In this document: piece by piece, positions 22,842-47,264 of the stretch
How the letters are laid out: each line of letters starts with the position of its first letter
Numbering within the stretch: the first letter of the stretch is position 1
IMG/VR virus record: IMGVR_UViG_3300037400_004093
Location: 2,591 to 66,590 of that record
Origin: a virus
Lineage: Duplodnaviria > Caudoviricetes
Reading direction: 5' to 3' (one strand)
Length of the DNA stretch: 64,000 nt
Made by a program: the position numbers and the translations under genes
Notes under the pieces: generated by a model
Told to the model about the DNA's origin: nothing
Seen by the model: only the letters and a program-made list of their open reading frames with translations
Databases searched by the model: none

Positions 22842-22853
22842 AAAATAGAAAGG

Positions 22854-25800
22854 ATGATTTTTACGGCATTTAAAAAATTATCGCCAATAGAAGAAGCGAA
22901 ACTAAAAAAAATAATGGATGATCCTGTTTTGTGGGCCAAAGCCTTTATTCAGGCAAGAAATCCTGCTACTATGAAAACTGGACCATGGATAGCGAGAAAA
23001 TATCAAGTAGAAATGATGCACGATGATTCTTTAAGAAAAGTATACCGCATGGGAAGACGTTTGGGTAATAATAAATTTGCCGTCTAATTATGATATGTAC
23101 TGGAATAATTAGATTATAATGGCGGAATTAAGCTGGGAGGGTTATAAATACCTAATCAGAGACCGAACTTTTTATTAAATAAAAAGAGGCGCAACGCATA
23201 GATAGTGAAAAGATATAATCTATCCAAGAGGCCGCCACACGTTGTACATACAAGGATACGTGAAAAGATATGCTAAACTATATTATAATGATATAGAAGT
23301 TAAGATAAAAAACTTAACGATAATAAAATTGAAAACGGATACTATGTGTGTAGAAGGTCTTCATAAAGCTGCCAATAATAAAGGTTTTAGAATCTTATAC
23401 GTAACACCTTATGAAAACCAAGTAGACTTAATATTTGCGAGAATGAAAGAAATCATCGCGGATTCTCCATTAATAAAAACATTAGTGACGAGAATTACTA
23501 ATAGTCCTTATAAAATAGAATTCTCTAATGGATCCCAGATTAGAGGATTTACGACAGGAGCTGCTTCAGGAAATGGAGCAGCGTCGGTAATTTCTTAAAA
23601 ATATTGCCCGAGTCTGGTAGAAAGCCAAGACTTTGAAGATAGGTTAATTGCTGGAACATCCTTTAGATAGGACAATCAGCAGCCATCGCGTTTTTTAAAA
23701 AATGCTTGGTTCAACGACTAGAGAGTGACGCCTCGTAGAATTTAACGTAAATTCGAAATGCCTATCATCTAATAAAACATTAGATTAAGATATAGTCTGT
23801 ACTTATACGTAAGTATAAGAAGGTCGACGAGAGTATATAACGGCGCCGATCGTAACAAATTAGGCGCGGACAGAAAGCTGACATTTTTTTCTTTAATCCA
23901 CTTCATTAAAAAACATTCACTCCCATGGTAATAAATTAATGTAAAGACAAAATATCAATTATTATCATGAGGTGATTTTTAATGAATAATATTAATCCTA
24001 AACACAAAGACAAAATAATATCTATGCTAAAAGATGGGAAAAGTATATCTGAAATAGGACGTACTGTATTACATTCTACTGGAACAGGATCCATTAACAA
24101 TATCATTATAAAATTGGGAATACATCCTGAAGATTATAATAATAAATATTTGTATATGAATAGAGAATGGCTAACCAAAGCAATAGAAAAATATGAAACT
24201 CCATCAAAAATTGCTAAAATATACGGAATGCCTAGGACTTCAGTTACCAGATATGCTGAACGTTTTGAATTATATAAGTCAAAATTTAACAGGACAAAGA
24301 AAAATAATATAAATGAAGATTATTTTAAAAATATAAATACATGCAATAAAAGTTATTGGTTAGGTTTTGTCATGGCAGATGGATGTTTATGTCATATAGG
24401 AACATCAAGAAAATCATTTAGCATAATGATAAAAACAGAAGATAAGTCACATGTAATGCAATTTGCTAAAGATATAGATTTTCCAGAAGATAAAGTAAAA
24501 ACTAGAAAAGCTTTAAGAAAAAATACCATATGTAATACAACAGGATTTACAACTAGCAATAAAATATTTTGTAATAATTTAGAACAACATGGAATAGTCC
24601 CAAGAAAAACAGGAAAAGAAAGTATTCCCAAATCAATTCCTCAAGACTTAAAAAATGATTTTATACGAGGTTTTTTTGATGGTGACGGTCATATAGGATT
24701 TGATAGAATTGAAGTATCTACTACATCATTAACCATGTTAGAACAATTAACAAGTTGGTTATGTAATCATAGAATATTTTACACTATTCAAATTGTAGAT
24801 AAAACAAAATCTGTAATTCTATATCGCATAGTCATATCAAAACAATCTTGGAAAGATTTTCTAGATATAGTTTATTATCCTGGATGTTTTGGATTAGAAA
24901 GAAAAATAAATAAAGTTAAAGAAATACAGTCCACCTTAACAGGTGAATGAAAATGAATTGCCGGAACGCCCTTAGAGTCTTATCTACCATCAGCCAAGTA
25001 TAACGACTTGTTTAGGTAACAACGATAAGAATTGGGTAATCATAGGCAGCCATCGCGTTTCTTGAGAACGCTCGGTTCAACGACTATCCCTCGGCTCGCT
25101 TTCTATAAAATAAATGAGCAATAGGAGTACGGCCCGAAATCGTGGGCGGGTGAAATTCCCTTAATTGGAAGTGTTTTCCCTCTATTTTAGATAGAAGAAG
25201 ATATAGTCTGATCTTATAGGAAACTATAAGAAGGGTAGCATAACGTGCTATTCGTAACATAATGTGGATATTCATGGACGAGATAGATTACATGGGAGAA
25301 GATGATTATTCTACAGTAGCTATGATAGCTAGAGAAAGACCGACTATCGGAATAACAGCTTCTTCAACTCCAACAGGTAAACGTGGGGTAGACAGAATGC
25401 CTCACTATAAAAAACTGACTAATTGCGGGAAACTCCTTAGAGCTATCAAATACTTTTTAAAGTAATAAGTTTGATAGATTGGACAATCTGCAGCCAAGCT
25501 TTATTATATAAAAAAATAAAGAAGGTTCAACGACTAGAATATTATATTTGTACACTTTAAAAAAGTGGAAACGTCAGTCTCTTTTAATTAATTTATATTA
25601 AAAGATGAAGATATAGTCTATAAACTATTGAAAAATAGTTTAATTTTTATATAAAGGTTCTTCTCAATGTGTACTGACGCAAGCTGGGGGTTTAGTGAAC
25701 ACTATCATCCTTCCAGTGATAATCCTTTAAGAACACAAGCAATGGATGATGAAGATAGAGCCCAATTAACGGCTTCTCAATATGACCATGAAATATTAGC

Positions 25801-27406
25801 GATATTTGGTACTGAAGAAGCTGGTGTATTCGATAAAGCCAAATTAGATTTGGCTATGAAACAAGAATATTATACCTATAGTCCTTTAACTGATACTCAA
25901 AGAAGAAATTTAGAAGGCAATGAACTTCCTAATATGTATATCTATGAAGAAGGAGAACGAGCTCCTTCTAATGTATTTAGATGTGTAGGGGTAGTATACA
26001 AGTTTGCTCCGCTATATAGTAATATATAGAAAAATAAAATCCGTTAATTGCTGGAAAATCTATATTTTAAAATAAAATATAGACAATCAGCAGCCAAACT
26101 TTATTATATAAAAAGTAAAGTAGGTTCAACGACTAGAGTTATTTACTCGTACTCTTTTTCATTTATGATAAAGAGGAAGTGCGGAACTCCTTTATTTAAA
26201 AAATCAAATAAAGGATGAAGATATAGTCTGAACTTTATTGAAAAATAAAGCTAACATAAATGAGATTGGGATAAAGTGCAAGCTAGTTCTTCTATAGTAG
26301 TATTAGATTTTGATCAAGCACGTAAAAAATTTAAAGTCTTTAAACGATTTGAAGTACCTCGAAGCGAATATTCATTAGATAATGCTGTAGAATGGATTAT
26401 AAAAATTAATGAAATATATAATCCTTCATGGATATTCTGTGATAGAGGTTATGGTAAAAGATAAAATTGCCGTTTAATGGTTTTTCTTCTATATATTTAT
26501 TGTATATAACATAACCATTAAATTATTAGCGGGCAAAATCGGTGAAAGTTTTTTTAATACAAAAATATTATAAAGCTAATACCGAGGTAATTTATATAGT
26601 GTAGATATATAGATACCGTAACGCATAGTTTTTGAAATAATAAAACCAAGAGTGTCCGCCACGAAGAAGAAATCGTGAAAATATATGCTAATCTGAGTTG
26701 GAAATAACCAACCAATGAAAATGAGTGTAATGCTCCAGAGATTAAGATAAAAAGCTTAATGATAAAAATAAAAATGGATTATCAAATCGAAAGACTTCAT
26801 ATTTATGGAGATAAACATCCTTCTTCTGGTTTAAAAAATAAAGTAGTCGGATGGCAGTTCAAGAACACCGTAGAAATAATAGATCCAGTTACTAAAGTAA
26901 AGACCAAGGAGCCAATGAAGCCCTTTATGGTTAACCAATTAGCCCTTACAATAGAGAGAAATCGCTTAATTTTAAGTCCGTTCGATGAAAAATTACATCA
27001 ACAACTCGTGGACTATGTAGTTGAAAAAGTAACCGATACAGGTGTTCCTAAATATACTAGTAAAAATGAACATTTTGTAGATGCTTTAGGATTGGCTCAT
27101 TTAGCATTTGTTCTTAAATTTCCTGATTTAACTCAAGCTATTAAGAAAATTGAATTTTCATCAAAAATGGCTCATAGTAATGTAAGATTAGGTTCAGAAA
27201 GAATTGAAAACGAACTTCGTGGAGGTACGAGCATGAATCCTTGGGGAAATTTAAAACAAATAGGCAAAGAACCAGGAGAACGACCTGGAGATTATCAGAA
27301 ATGGGTAAAAGTTCCAATGAGAGCAACACCTTCTAATTATTCTAGTCGATCTTCGTGGGGATCAAGAACAAGTGGCCGAGGTATGGGCGGCAGATCTATG
27401 TGGTAA
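22854..27406 (+). CDS. terL: terminase large subunit, 7 exons, 590 aa after splicing
   Basis: Join 22854-23066, 23332-23588, 23864-23882, 25265-25389, 25657-25992, 26263-26455, 26777-27406 (1773 nt, in frame). Restores GRRLG|KT (Walker A), RGQKAD|WIFMDE (Walker B), STPTGKRGV|FF, VGV|DWD and DRGYG|DY. Confidence 0.92.
23067..23331 (+). mobile_element. group I intron terL-I1 (265 nt, no ORF)
   Basis: Exon ends in U, intron ends in G; P7 CAACGCATAG/AAGATATGCT; interrupts Walker A. Confidence 0.85.
23589..23863 (+). mobile_element. group I intron terL-I2 (275 nt, no ORF)
   Basis: AATTGCTGGAA, AATCAGCAG, TTCAACGACTA and GATATAGTCT core motifs; GT|G boundary. Confidence 0.88.
23883..25264 (+). 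mobile_element. group I intron terL-I3 carrying a homing endonuclease
   Basis: Ribozyme core follows the ORF (AATTGCCGGAA...TTCAACGACTA...GAAGATATAGTCT); junction is 23883-25264 or 23886-25267. Confidence 0.85.
23982..24950 (+). CDS. LAGLIDADG homing endonuclease with an N-terminal HTH-like region
   Basis: YWLGFVMADG and FIRGFFDGDG motifs; own GAGGTG RBS inside the intron. Confidence 0.88.
   Translation: MNNINPKHKDKIISMLKDGKSISEIGRTVLHSTGTGSINNIIIKLGIHPEDYNNKYLYMNREWLTKAIEKYETPSKIAKIYGMPRTSVTRYAERFELYKSKFNRTKKNNINEDYFKNINTCNKSYWLGFVMADGCLCHIGTSRKSFSIMIKTEDKSHVMQFAKDIDFPEDKVKTRKALRKNTICNTTGFTTSNKIFCNNLEQHGIVPRKTGKESIPKSIPQDLKNDFIRGFFDGDGHIGFDRIEVSTTSLTMLEQLTSWLCNHRIFYTIQIVDKTKSVILYRIVISKQSWKDFLDIVYYPGCFGLERKINKVKEIQSTLTGE
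25390..25656 (+). mobile_element. group I intron terL-I4 (267 nt)
   Basis: Core motifs present; P3 ACTGAC/GTCAGT; inserted after GGGGT. Confidence 0.87.
25993..26262 (+). mobile_element. group I intron terL-I5 (270 nt)
   Basis: Core motifs, close in sequence to I4; inserted after GGGGT, just before the nuclease catalytic Asp. Confidence 0.87.
26456..26776 (+). mobile_element. group I intron terL-I6 (321 nt)
   Basis: P7 TAACGCATAG/ATATGCTA, same class as I1; GGT|...G boundary. Confidence 0.85.
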
Positions 27407-43704: not shown

Positions 43705-43807
43705 TATATAAGAAAAAATTATTCAATATTTAGTATATAGATTAATGGAGAAATCTATTAAACGGATTTCTCCATATCTATAAATTTTAAGGAGTGAAAA
43801 TATAAAG

Positions 43808-45525
43808 ATGGCAACAGGTTATCAGACAGCATCTGCTTATACTCGTACTTATACCAGTTTTAGTGGGTGTGACATTGTCGCAACTTTCGCTGGTGTGGTG
43901 ATCGGCGAATTACAAGCTATTACATATAGCGTTCAAAGAGAAAAAGCACCGATTAACCTATAGTGTAGGTCGGACTAGTGTAAAATATGGATAGCACTAG
44001 AAGGAAATGCGGAAAAAATCTGGAAGGCTAAGTTTTATTTATATAATAAAATATGTTAATCAGAGGTGAAGGTTTATATATATTAACCAGCCGCAACGCA
44101 TAGTTCTTGAAATAATAGAACCAAGAGGCCGCATCAATCTCCATATAAATTGATTGAAAAGATATGCTAAACTTATATGAAAATATAAGATATAGAATGT
44201 AAAAATATTCTATGATAATAGTTATTCGCTATACAATGGGTTCTGCTGAACCACGTTCTTTCTCCAGAGGTTTATCTAACGCAAGCCTCGCGGCATAGTA
44301 ATATGTCGAATAATATATTCCGTGAATTGCTGGAAAACCGTAACATATAATTAGTACCAATATGTCGGCAATCAGCAGCCTAATCTTTTTTTTAAAAGAT
44401 AGGTTCAACGACTAATCCATTATGGCTCGAGAACTAAAATAAATGAGCATTAGATGTAGGTCCTATTCAAAACGAATTAAAATAGGAGAGTGAAATTCTC
44501 TTAAATCGAAGTGCGGAACATCTTAAAAAACAAAAAGATGAAGATATAGTCTAATCCTTTAAGACAATTAAAGGTATTAATGAAGCGCGGTATTGCAGGT
44601 ACTTTAGTATTTACCGTATTTGATCATGATGCATTAATTAATGCTTTGGAACAGCATGTGGATATGTCTTCCTTCCAGCGTATTGGTGGCAATGCTAATA
44701 TGCAGGCAATGGATATCACTGAATGGGATAAGGCATTAACCAATATGATTACTAATCAGACCGATTCTGCTCAGATTACTCAAGATATCGCTCGTAATTG
44801 GGATGGGAAGGAAGATAGTAATAATGTAAATATCTTAAATTCTAAAAATGGTGCTGTTAATTCTGGTAAAGCAGATACTAAGCATACTAAGATTTACTAT
44901 GCAGATGAAATTCCTCCATTAAAATATCTAGTGGCCTAACTAAGTGATTAGTTAGAGAAAAGTTACTTAATTGCTGGAAACTCTTTATATAATAAAGACA
45001 ATCAGCAGCCAATTCTTTAATTTCATAAAGAAAGGTTCAACGACTATGCAGGAATGCAGTACACTTAAGTAAGTGGAAAGAGTAACTGTCTTTTATAAGA
45101 TAATAATATAGTCTGATCTCATAAGTAATTATGAGTCCTTTATTAATATAGGATAATAAATTTAACGTATTTATTATAACGATAATGTTGATATTACTAT
45201 CAGTTTTGCTAACGAGTATGGACAGAATGCTCGTGTCGTAATTTATTCTGTAGAAATCTTGAATGAAGGTTCTGGTTTCAGTATTGATAATGTATCTTCT
45301 GAAAAGGCTTGTACTTTTGTAGCCCGTCGTGTTGACTACATGAAAGCTGTTGTAAAGGGTGGTACCACTACTGGTGGCAATACTGTCAATACCAATACTG
45401 GTGGCAGCAATAACCAGAAACAGACCACTGATAACTCTAACAAGCAAGCTATTAATGGTCCAGCTACCCCTCAGACTAACAATGCAATTTTTGAGGGCGG
45501 TAAAGACGGTATGATTAGAGTTTAA
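43808..45525 (+). CDS. tail tube protein, 4 exons, 287 aa after splicing
   Basis: Join 43808-43953, 44229-44271, 44583-44919, 45188-45525 (864 nt): SFSGCDIVA...REKAPI|YTMGSAEPRSFSRG|KRGIAGTLVF...DEIPPF|DITISFANEYG; aligns by eye with the intact paralog at 45639. Confidence 0.9.
43954..44228 (+). mobile_element. group I intron tube-I1 (275 nt)
   Basis: P1: exon CCGAU pairs with IGS GUCGG; P7 CAACGCATAG/AAGATATGCT. Confidence 0.87.
44272..44582 (+). mobile_element. group I intron tube-I2 (311 nt)
   Basis: P1: exon GAGGU pairs with IGS GCCUC; core TTCAACGACTA/GAAGATATAGTCT. Confidence 0.87.
44920..45187 (+). mobile_element. group I intron tube-I3 (268 nt)
   Basis: P1: exon CCAU pairs with IGS GUGG; core TTCAACGACTA/ATATAGTCT. 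Confidence 0.87.
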
Positions 45526-45638
45526 TATATTATATAGTATAAACAGAATATAATATAGTTATATATTTTTTATAGAGAAAGCTGATATTATATCAACTTT
45601 CTCTATTTATTTATAAAGGATAGAGAGGAGAAATAGAT

Positions 45639-47264
45639 ATGCCAGGACAGTTACCTCCTGCATTAATAGAAGCGGCAGGAAAAATAGGGCAAACAGTGAT
45701 GAGTGTTGTAGCACGAGGATTACCTTCTGCAGCTGAAAGAACATATGGTACAGGAGTAGGCAGAAATATAATTACCAATTGGAATAATCTTAGTGCTAAA
45801 GCAAAAGAATTAGTTACTAATGATGCAACCAAGATGGTGGCAAAAGAATTAGGAATAGAATTAGCTGTTGACGAAATAGCTAGTGTGGTAGAGAATTTTC
45901 TAGCGAAAAACGGAACAAAATTGCCTTCAGGCATAGCAGAAACTGGAGCAATAAAAGGCCCCTCTGAGTTAAGTTCTGTTAGTACGTTTATTCCTCCCGT
46001 TGGATTTGGAGGCAATGGAGAATCTGGAGTAAATGAATATATTAGAAAAAGATATTCTTATTCCGGACATGATATGGTATGTTCCATTATTATGCCAATG
46101 CCTGATGGAAGTGGAACAATTACTAAAGTTATAGGTGAATTACAGCATATTACCTATTCTATTCATGAAGAAAAGAGTTTAATAAGAAATTTAGGAAACA
46201 TGAATCCTCGAGGATATGTATTTGGTCCTAGAACTATTGCAGGAACTATGGTATTTAGCGTATTTTATCGTCATTTTGCTTTAGAATTAATGAAAGAGTA
46301 TACAGACAAAAAAGGAATGACGACACATTTTCTAATGGATGAACTCCCTGAATTTGATTTAGTGATTTCCTGTGCTAATGAATATGGAGATAAATCAGTA
46401 TTAGTAATATATGGAATTACCTTAGTAAATGAAGGCCAAGTGATGTCTATTAATGATGTTTATACAGAAAATACTTATGAATATTATGCTAAAGATATAG
46501 ATTATCTTACTGAAGTTACAGATAAGGCTACAAGTTCTAAAAAAGAAAATAAAACTGAAAAACCTATTATTGTGGATGAAAAAAATGATGATAACTCTGC
46601 AGAAGATTCTGGTTTTTTTGAATTCTTAAAAGATAGTTCTAAAGAATCGGATAAAGAAGATAATTCTGAAAAACCAATAGAAGAAGAATCAAATTCTATA
46701 ATGGATTATTTATCTAATACACTGAATTCTATATCAGAAGAACTTCCATCTTTAAATGATTTTGTTGCGCCGATAAAACAATTAACAGATAAAACAGATA
46801 ATTTAGTGAATAACATATTGCCAGAACAATTTTCTTTGATTGATAGAGCCAATAGTAATGTTCAAAATAAAATCAATGAAATGACTGATAAATATGAAAA
46901 CGAAAAAAAATTTATAGAAAATGAAATAGACACAAATATAATAGACCCAGATAAAGGTAATCAATTATTAGAAGAATTAAAGAAAAATTATGATGAAGGA
47001 AAAGAAGCTTTATTATATGATTATAACAATTATAAAGACAATATCATAGAAAATAATCGACAGAAACTAGATTCTTATTGCGAGCAAATAAATAAAGGCA
47101 TAAAAGAGGAATACGATAAACAAATCGATAAACTTTTAGAAGAAGGAGAAATACTTCAAGATAAAGCTGACAAGATTAGATATGATCTGTATAATTCTTA
47201 TAATCAGAAAAAAGAAGAATACCAAACTAAATTTAATGAGGCTCTAGATAGTCTGAAAATTTAA
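45639..47264 (+). CDS. tail tube paralog with N- and C-terminal extensions
   Basis: YSYSGHDMV...IGELQHITYSIHEEK...GPRTIAGTMVF...LPEFDLVISCANEYG. Confidence 0.75.
   Translation: MPGQLPPALIEAAGKIGQTVMSVVARGLPSAAERTYGTGVGRNIITNWNNLSAKAKELVTNDATKMVAKELGIELAVDEIASVVENFLAKNGTKLPSGIAETGAIKGPSELSSVSTFIPPVGFGGNGESGVNEYIRKRYSYSGHDMVCSIIMPMPDGSGTITKVIGELQHITYSIHEEKSLIRNLGNMNPRGYVFGPRTIAGTMVFSVFYRHFALELMKEYTDKKGMTTHFLMDELPEFDLVISCANEYGDKSVLVIYGITLVNEGQVMSINDVYTENTYEYYAKDIDYLTEVTDKATSSKKENKTEKPIIVDEKNDDNSAEDSGFFEFLKDSSKESDKEDNSEKPIEEESNSIMDYLSNTLNSISEELPSLNDFVAPIKQLTDKTDNLVNNILPEQFSLIDRANSNVQNKINEMTDKYENEKKFIENEIDTNIIDPDKGNQLLEELKKNYDEGKEALLYDYNNYKDNIIENNRQKLDSYCEQINKGIKEEYDKQIDKLLEEGEILQDKADKIRYDLYNSYNQKKEEYQTKFNEALDSLKI

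Follow-up and report, generated by a model that had tools for sequence, protein, structure and literature searches.

We analysed the large terminase subunit gene (terL) that occupies positions 22854-27406 of a stretch of phage DNA taken from IMG/VR record IMGVR_UViG_3300037400_004093; positions refer to the whole 64,000-nt stretch (the window), and all features described lie on its + strand. The results point with high confidence to the terL gene of an uncultured jumbo phage of the cattle and pig gut that is carried in seven pieces, separated by six mobile group I introns that are predicted to be self-splicing. The introns have defined borders and carry group I signatures, their removal restores the reading frame, they are polymorphic for presence and absence among variants of the locus, and the exons are under purifying selection.

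Six stop-containing blocks interrupt a conserved terminase gene

Seven open stretches were found on the + strand between 22854 and 27406, and the six blocks between them carry in-frame stop codons. Intron borders were set by three rules, namely a U preceding the intron, a G at its end and restoration of the frame. Joined in this way, the coding sequence was 1770 nt long including the stop codon, in frame throughout, and encoded a product of 589 amino acids; no frameshift or stop was present in any exon. The six introns (265, 275, 1382, 267, 270 and 321 nt; Table 1) made up 2780 of the 4553 nt (61%) of the locus, exactly the proportion stated in a preliminary description of this DNA.

The 3′ border of intron 2 was fixed by the RGQKAD micro-exon together with the terminal G. 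For the fourth junction, a join at 25384|25658 (KR|FF) was dropped, as it left a two-residue gap relative to all homologs; the join at 25389|25657 (...TGKRGV|FFSMC) was gapless, its P1 helix puts a U.G pair at 25389, and a metagenomic contig (X6, described below) makes the same join. At the 5′ end of the gene, a purine-rich AGAAAGG (22847-22856) abuts the ATG at 22854 without a spacer, leaving the true start codon and ribosome site uncertain; terL homologs begin within about three residues of this ATG.

Exon 7 alone returned 259 protein matches at E ≤ 0.001, many of them 585-590 amino acids long and carrying PF03237, while Pfam searches with single exons gave no terminase match, the pieces being too short. 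The joined protein was 66-68% identical over about 580 columns to uninterrupted homologs of 585-590 amino acids, and showed no gap at any of the six junctions against 58 uninterrupted full-length homologs. The preliminary description had staked its reading on the joined protein aligning to TerL, and the alignment ran the full length. The nearest uninterrupted homolog (P0003) matched the Pfam family Terminase_6N (35 bits; cut-off 22). A search of the PDB with the P0003 sequence returned nothing useful and a fold search was needed, in which its AlphaFold model (mean predicted local distance difference test score 79) matched T4 gp17 (E 6.6e-22), as well as the terminases of D6E, HK97 and Sf6 and nuclease domains isolated from terminases. 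These results bear out the assignment of the gene as a large terminase.

Among cultured phages, the nearest TerL proteins were those of Moorella phage MTATph1 (40%) and the Bacillus 0305phi8-36 group (~33%). An AR9-like origin of the phage was considered and rejected, since AR9 matches the introns only. The record itself is a 66.6-kb fragment that CheckV rates as 28% complete; relatives were found on contigs of 100-370 kb, and we therefore regard the phage as a jumbo phage.

The insertions lie at functionally prominent places. Intron 1 interrupts Walker A (GRRLG|KT); introns 2 and 3 stand on either side of RGQKAD, directly ahead of the Walker B strand (WIFMDE); intron 4 follows the SSTP motif at a distance of 8 residues; intron 5 interrupts GV|DWD in the first nuclease strand; and intron 6 follows DRGYG. 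Within the RGQKAD peptide encoded by the 19-nt exon, R, G, Q and D were invariant in 58/58 homologs. Local conservation (±6 residues) at sites 1 to 6 fell at percentiles 86, 97, 92, 62, 62 and 91, all above the median. The earlier statement that every insertion falls in or next to a catalytic motif is a fair one, with sites 4 and 5 only moderately conserved locally.

Introns 2 to 5 match the canonical group I model

Introns 2, 3, 4 and 5 all exceeded the curated 50-bit cut-off of the Rfam group I model RF00028 (86.9, 54.8, 82.7 and 87.6 bits, respectively). Introns 2 and 3, both IA-type, share two core blocks that are 84-86% identical, and both extend 34-44 nt past the modelled P9 through a hairpin into a shared CGUAACA-type tail. 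Introns 4 and 5 were 73% identical over 167 nt and both follow GGGGU. The P1 pairings, read from the sequence, were cggU|aau with auuGcc for intron 2, guggggU with Gccucac for intron 4, ggggU with Gcucc for intron 5 and auggU with Gccgu for intron 6. A U.G pair at the 5′ splice site was read in introns 1, 2, 4, 5 and 6, and all six introns end in G. The intron 5 site was also filled by RF00028-positive introns in three relatives (L020, L021 and L022).

The open reading frame (ORF) within intron 3 matched PF14528 with 43.8 bits (cut-off 22.5), its translation contained two LAGLIDADG-type motifs and N-terminal helix-turn-helix-like regions, and a GAGG ribosome site lies upstream. By these family criteria, intron 3 is predicted to encode a LAGLIDADG homing endonuclease.

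Intron 3 most likely splices after a C

Two in-frame options were available for intron 3: GAC|...G|TGG, which leaves a 19-nt exon and the peptide KADWIF, and ...ATT|...G|ATA, which leaves a 22-nt exon and KADIIF. The preliminary description had proposed that alignment to intron-free TerL homologs would decide between them, and that alignment spoke for KADWIF: the junction column held W in 39 of the 58 homologs, an aromatic residue in 53 and I in 1. The 19-nt size that it had given for exon 3 was borne out by gapless alignment to the homologs, with 22 nt corresponding to the less favoured junction. Homologous introns were present at the same site in five relatives (L009, L010, L028, L029 and L035), and these must splice GAU|...G|UGG because an in-frame stop codon directly follows. 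The window and these relatives have in common the guide CAGUC; it adjoins a conserved P2 hairpin (CACC...GGUG) and forms an unbroken helix with the ligated GAU|UG. A minimum free energy fold of the 5′ region of intron 3 gave a GGGCUG/CAGUCC helix with the splice site left in a loop; the guide pairing of CAGUC with GAU|UG is preferred over this helix. These results suggest that a C, instead of the usual U, most likely precedes intron 3, with KADW favoured over KADI, and they lend weight to the earlier suggestion of a non-canonical C. Only the window has an exon ending in GAC here, all six further alleles that carry an intron at this site ending in GAT, and the C is an unexplained feature. In work on the Tetrahymena ribozyme, a G.U wobble was needed for the first splicing step.

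Splicing at the canonical U at 23885 with the G at 25267, which would give the 22-nt exon and KADIIF, appears unlikely. This choice respects the U rule and is also in frame, a variant from another metagenome (X8) without the homing endonuclease gene likewise has U at +3 (gacaCT), and the GGUG that lies just upstream of P3 could offer a pairing partner for CAUU or CACU. However, this GGUG is the 3′ strand of the conserved P2 hairpin, a contig from a further metagenome (X3) rejoins the window exactly at 25265, and both the W column of the homologs and the forced splicing in the five relatives with the shared guide speak for the junction after the C.

In a speculative proposal that we hold to be improbable, the micro-exon and the C before intron 3 would act as a kinetic checkpoint and not as a defect that is tolerated, with the amount or timing of active terminase set by competition between ribozyme reactions. 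Intron 3 would then splice slowly, or only when aided by its LAGLIDADG protein acting as a maturase or by a host or phage factor, and the homologous neighbouring intron 2 could skip the 19-nt exon, an event known from Twort orf142 and SIOphi terL, and so yield a frameshifted product.

Natural variants lack single introns and conserve the spliced frame

We compared the locus with contigs of four other runs from four studies (X2, X3, X6 and X8), the run types being guesses ('DNA?'). Contigs from X6 and X8 join 23065 + C + 23332, so that intron 1 is missing at its exact predicted borders, and the wobble base T23066 is replaced by C, a synonymous glycine change. Since this intron-1-less joint carries a base change, it represents a DNA allele. 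An 11.5-kb X8 contig, spanning exon 1 to beyond exon 7, lacks intron 1 and carries intron 3 without the endonuclease gene, with 22 nt in place of 23884-24909. In a more distant X8 contig, 357 nt are skipped with 36 nt in between, and the net difference of 321 nt is exactly the size of intron 6. Intron 4 is missing from one X6 contig, which joins 25389|25657, and an intron-bearing contig was found in the same run. The pig-gut run X2 contained pieces spanning all six introns. The X3 contig departs from the window immediately past 23589 and returns to it at 25265, the sequence in between being similar to intron 1; we infer that it lacks intron 2 and has an intron of the intron 1 and 6 class at the D|W site. 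With respect to the exons, 11 of the 12 differences listed were synonymous in the spliced frame, among them the micro-exon variant C23867T (CGC to CGT), present in X2, X6 and X8. These results demonstrate purifying selection on the spliced frame.

Several observations weigh against the reading of the locus as a terL gene with six self-splicing group I introns. The RF00028 search found no match in intron 1 and only 15.1 bits in intron 6 (E 0.16; 351-nt search). At intron 3, the C forms a G-C pair in place of the G.U wobble (the partner G of the guide is present), and P1 has only ~3 bp on the exon side. The intron-4-less joint in X6 could be either DNA or spliced RNA, the run types being guesses, and no RNA run is among those listed for this DNA.

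Two of these points, the C at -1, unique among the seven intron-bearing alleles at the site, and the weak exon side of intron 3 P1, would also suit a recently crippled copy, in which the U-to-C change in intron 3 or the intron load blocks maturation and a dead-end allele hitch-hikes in mixed infections. We consider this very unlikely: the same architecture was found in independent cattle- and pig-gut studies, the exon differences between variants are almost all synonymous, the exons are free of frameshifts and stops, and no second terL was seen in the 66.6-kb record, itself only 28% complete.

Introns 1 and 6 form a covariation-supported class

Introns 1 and 6 resemble each other; both follow GGU, use the guide GCCGU and end in G. 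Besides a P7 of the form GCAUA/UAUGC, their class is marked by a P7.1 hairpin and an extended P9-P9.2 domain; its other members are a third copy in the window, the AR9 gyrA introns and elements in phiR1-37, BpSp, crAss cr6_1 and vB_CpeS-1181. Introns resembling introns 1 and 6 occupy the same sites in the relatives L013 and L020, and intron 6 was 70% identical to the same-site intron of L013 and L014. The intron 1 site was also filled in L020, L033 and L046. At this site, after residue 71, intron-bearing alleles read GGT, and intron-less alleles GGA, GGC or GGT.

Eleven sequences of the class were aligned with MAFFT. RNAalifold independently recovered from this alignment P2, P7 enclosing P7.1 and P8, and P9, P9.1 and P9.2, and P3 was then added as a pseudoknot (P3 crosses P7). 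Across P2, P3, P7, P7.1, P8, P9, P9.1 and P9.2, 93.4% of cells were paired, compared with 28-43% with slid partners; compensatory changes occurred in 30 of the 42 pairs, and the observed values were reached by 0/500 shuffles. P3 was 80% paired in the alignment, where MAFFT had set the P3 strands of two subgroups two columns out of register, and by eye it had 5-7 pairs in every member; P4-P6 were read by eye only. P7 covaries in three forms, the canonical GACUA/UAGUC, the GCAUA/UAUGC of introns 1 and 6, and the GCGUA/UACGC of the Clostridium phage. A site-171 intron in the relative L021 has the 3′ domain and the CCACGA motif of the class and matched RF00028 with 46.9 bits (E 5e-11); judged by these motifs, it is a bridge from the class to the curated RF00028 family.

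In AR9, the gyrA coding sequence (CDS) is annotated in GenBank as a join of three pieces, and the gene has been described as disrupted by two introns (preprint, bioRxiv 10.1101/2020.12.14.422802). In the cultured Clostridium phage vB_CpeS-1181 (L002, 1538-2707), the annotation gives terL as two separate 'terminase large subunit' CDSs flanking a 'hypothetical protein'. An intron of the class makes up the 3′ 210 nt of this gap, which looks like an unannotated ORF-carrying intron.

On the failure of RF00028 to match intron 1 and its 15.1 bits for intron 6, the two could instead be taken for other structured insertions that are not self-splicing group I introns and leave the transcript by a different route. 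This is highly improbable in view of their P3/P7 pseudoknot topology, J6/7 and J8/7 motifs corresponding to the canonical ones, U.G pair and terminal G, as well as the 3′ domain shared with the 46.9-bit intron, the spliced gyrA annotated in AR9 and the precise intron-less alleles. On the covariation evidence, introns 1 and 6 are assigned to a class with the group I P3/P7 pseudoknot, the predicted fold being the one that defines group I introns structurally. The group I identity given in the preliminary description therefore holds for introns 2-5 by the Rfam threshold, and for introns 1 and 6 by covariation, homology to the near-threshold intron and intron-less DNA alleles.

It is hardly credible that the gene arose in assembly, as a chimera in which intron repeats were collapsed. 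Paralogous repeats such as these introns can mislead assemblers, but the exon-intron joints are reproduced by contigs of four runs from four studies, a single 11.5-kb contig covers exon 1 to beyond exon 7, and the joined frame is perfect.

The terL family is a hot spot for mobile elements

In related terL genes from 22 IMG/VR and 27 metagenome loci, 0-4 insertions each were found, several of them confirmed by Rfam, at recurring sites after residues ~71, 163, 171, 217, 317 and 381. The window had the highest intron count in this 49-locus sample, and at the intron 2 site no insertion was seen in the 49 related loci. In L035, a 24-nt micro-exon (677-700; WIFCDELD, the Walker B strand) lies between introns at sites 163 (D|W) and 171 (after DEID). 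The family thus has micro-exons in more than one member. Some of its terminases, measuring 725-999 amino acids, carry intein (PF14890) and LAGLIDADG (PF14528) domains instead, so that in other phages the invasion of this gene is at the level of protein splicing; these are P0017, P0028, P0029, P0048, P0064, P0076, P0104, P0108 and P0110. Introns at recurring sites, together with inteins in relatives, indicate that the terL family is a hot spot for mobile elements.

The mechanism that we propose is that six mobile group I introns colonised terL. The primary transcript would have to lose all six by guanosine-initiated self-splicing, and only then would Walker A, RGQKAD, Walker B and the first nuclease Asp stand in one frame. 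The introns fall into three paralogous pairs (2 and 3, 4 and 5, 1 and 6). Only intron 3 appears to carry a homing endonuclease (LAGLIDADG), and the others may have spread with the help of endonucleases acting in trans, through recombination between phages infecting the same cell, or by reverse splicing into short guide-matching sites. For each intron, both the self-splicing and the route of movement are what we infer.

Short exon words precede the paralogous introns, GGGGU for introns 4 and 5 (25382-25389 and 25985-25992) and GGU for introns 1 and 6 (23061-23066 and 26450-26455); GGU also precedes the AR9, L013 and L020 copies. Such similar words ahead of paralogous introns would fit reverse splicing into guide-matching sites.

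Further along the window, at 43784-45525, a tail-tube-like gene (GELQAITYS...) is cut by three introns, and a paralog lies downstream (45624-47264). One of these introns is of the intron 1 and 6 class (~43943-44228), RF00028 matches were found at 44238-44573 and 44910-45135, and an exon of ~43 nt lies between the first two introns. Together with the six in terL, this brings the window to nine group I introns in two late genes. In one related phage, a cluster of six tRNA genes (L020:319-890) lies about 5 kb upstream of terL.

Table 1. Exons, introns and intron-encoded features of the terL locus (window positions)
Feature	Position	Strand	Description
terL exon 1	22854..23066	+	71 codons; ends ...GRRLG, first half of Walker A
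Intron 1	23067..23331	+	265 nt, ORF-less; AR9-gyrA-like group I class (predicted); after GGU, terminal G, internal guide sequence GCCGU
terL exon 2	23332..23588	+	KTDTM...GAASV; ends in phase 2
Intron 2	23589..23863	+	275 nt, ORF-less, IA-type group I; RF00028 86.9 bits at 23587-23819; hairpin tail of ~44 nt past the modelled core
Micro-exon 3	23864..23882	+	19 nt; completes Val, then RGQKAD; gapless against homologs
Intron 3	23883..25264	+	1382 nt, group I; RF00028 54.8 bits at 24872-25230; 5′ splice site most likely after C23882
Intron 3 ribozyme core	~24951-25264	+	endonuclease gene in 5′ loop
Putative LAGLIDADG homing-endonuclease ORF in intron 3	23983..24950	+	~322 amino acids; PF14528 E 3.2e-11
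terL exon 4	25265..25389	+	WIFMDEIDYMG...ASSTPTGKRGV; Walker B and SSTP motif
Intron 4	25390..25656	+	267 nt, ORF-less group I; RF00028 82.7 bits; paralog of intron 5
terL exon 5	25657..25992	+	gapless homolog alignment
Intron 5	25993..26262	+	270 nt, ORF-less group I; RF00028 87.6 bits; at nuclease GV|DWD
terL exon 6	26263..26455	+	ends ...FCDRGYG
Intron 6	26456..26776	+	321 nt, ORF-less; AR9-gyrA-like class (predicted); RF00028 only 15.1 bits
terL exon 7	26777..27406	+	209 codons + TAA; E 6.5e-90 to full-length terminases

Discussion

The locus illustrates the extent to which selfish ribozymes can colonise an essential phage gene that is still kept by selection. Its near-identical variants, differing by single introns or by the endonuclease gene, constitute a natural series in which the gain, loss and spread of introns can be studied. 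The C that precedes intron 3 offers a natural test of the G.U wobble rule. The 11-sequence set provides a clean, checkable sample of an intron class that the Rfam group I model misses. As a result, intron screens and gene callers annotate such phages incompletely. The authors of a study of Bastillevirinae described phage IA2-like introns as heterogeneous and poorly covered by existing models (PMC11878797).

The preliminary description held that single introns in phage terL genes were documented and knew of no characterised case with six. The published terL cases found reach 2-3 introns, and in open-access text we came across no report of a phage gene with six group I introns. In Bastillevirinae, terL carries 2-3 group I introns with a small exon, exon skipping occurs and splicing was shown in vivo (PMC11878797). 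The terL and pol introns of these phages resemble the present case in that terL is split by group I introns with a small exon between two of them, whereas the window has twice as many introns and belongs to an unrelated phage lineage. Staphylococcus phage Twort orf142 contains three group I introns in one late gene and shows exon skipping (Landthaler & Shub 1999, as cited in PMC11878797); the likeness is that a single late gene, structural or for packaging, holds several ORF-less IA-type introns and has short internal exons. In contrast to orf142, the window terL has six introns rather than three, a 19-nt exon and two intron classes, and is known here from DNA alone.

The AR9/PBS1 gyrA introns, the elements of Yersinia phiR1-37, Bacillus BpSp and crAss cr6_1, and that of Clostridium vB_CpeS-1181 terL are of the same class as introns 1 and 6, with which they share the guide GCCGU, AACGCAUAG...AUAUGCUA, the P7.1 hairpin and the P9 to P9.2 domain. 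They differ in their host genes and insertion sites, whereas the window has two such introns in terL and a third in the tail-tube gene.

Among gut phages, Jug phages carry terL in 2-3 fragments, with splicing confirmed from metatranscriptomes (PMC12880540), and crAss-like Zeta phages carry a major capsid protein gene in five fragments (PMC7886860). [quoted passage not shown] Staphylococcus jumbo phages also have an intron-disrupted terL, broken up to such a degree that its authors were unable to reconstruct the mature protein, whereas the exon map of the window is resolved and was checked against intact homologs and intron-less alleles. Set beside these systems, the terL of the window is a real and extreme case of a known phage habit and not a new mechanism.

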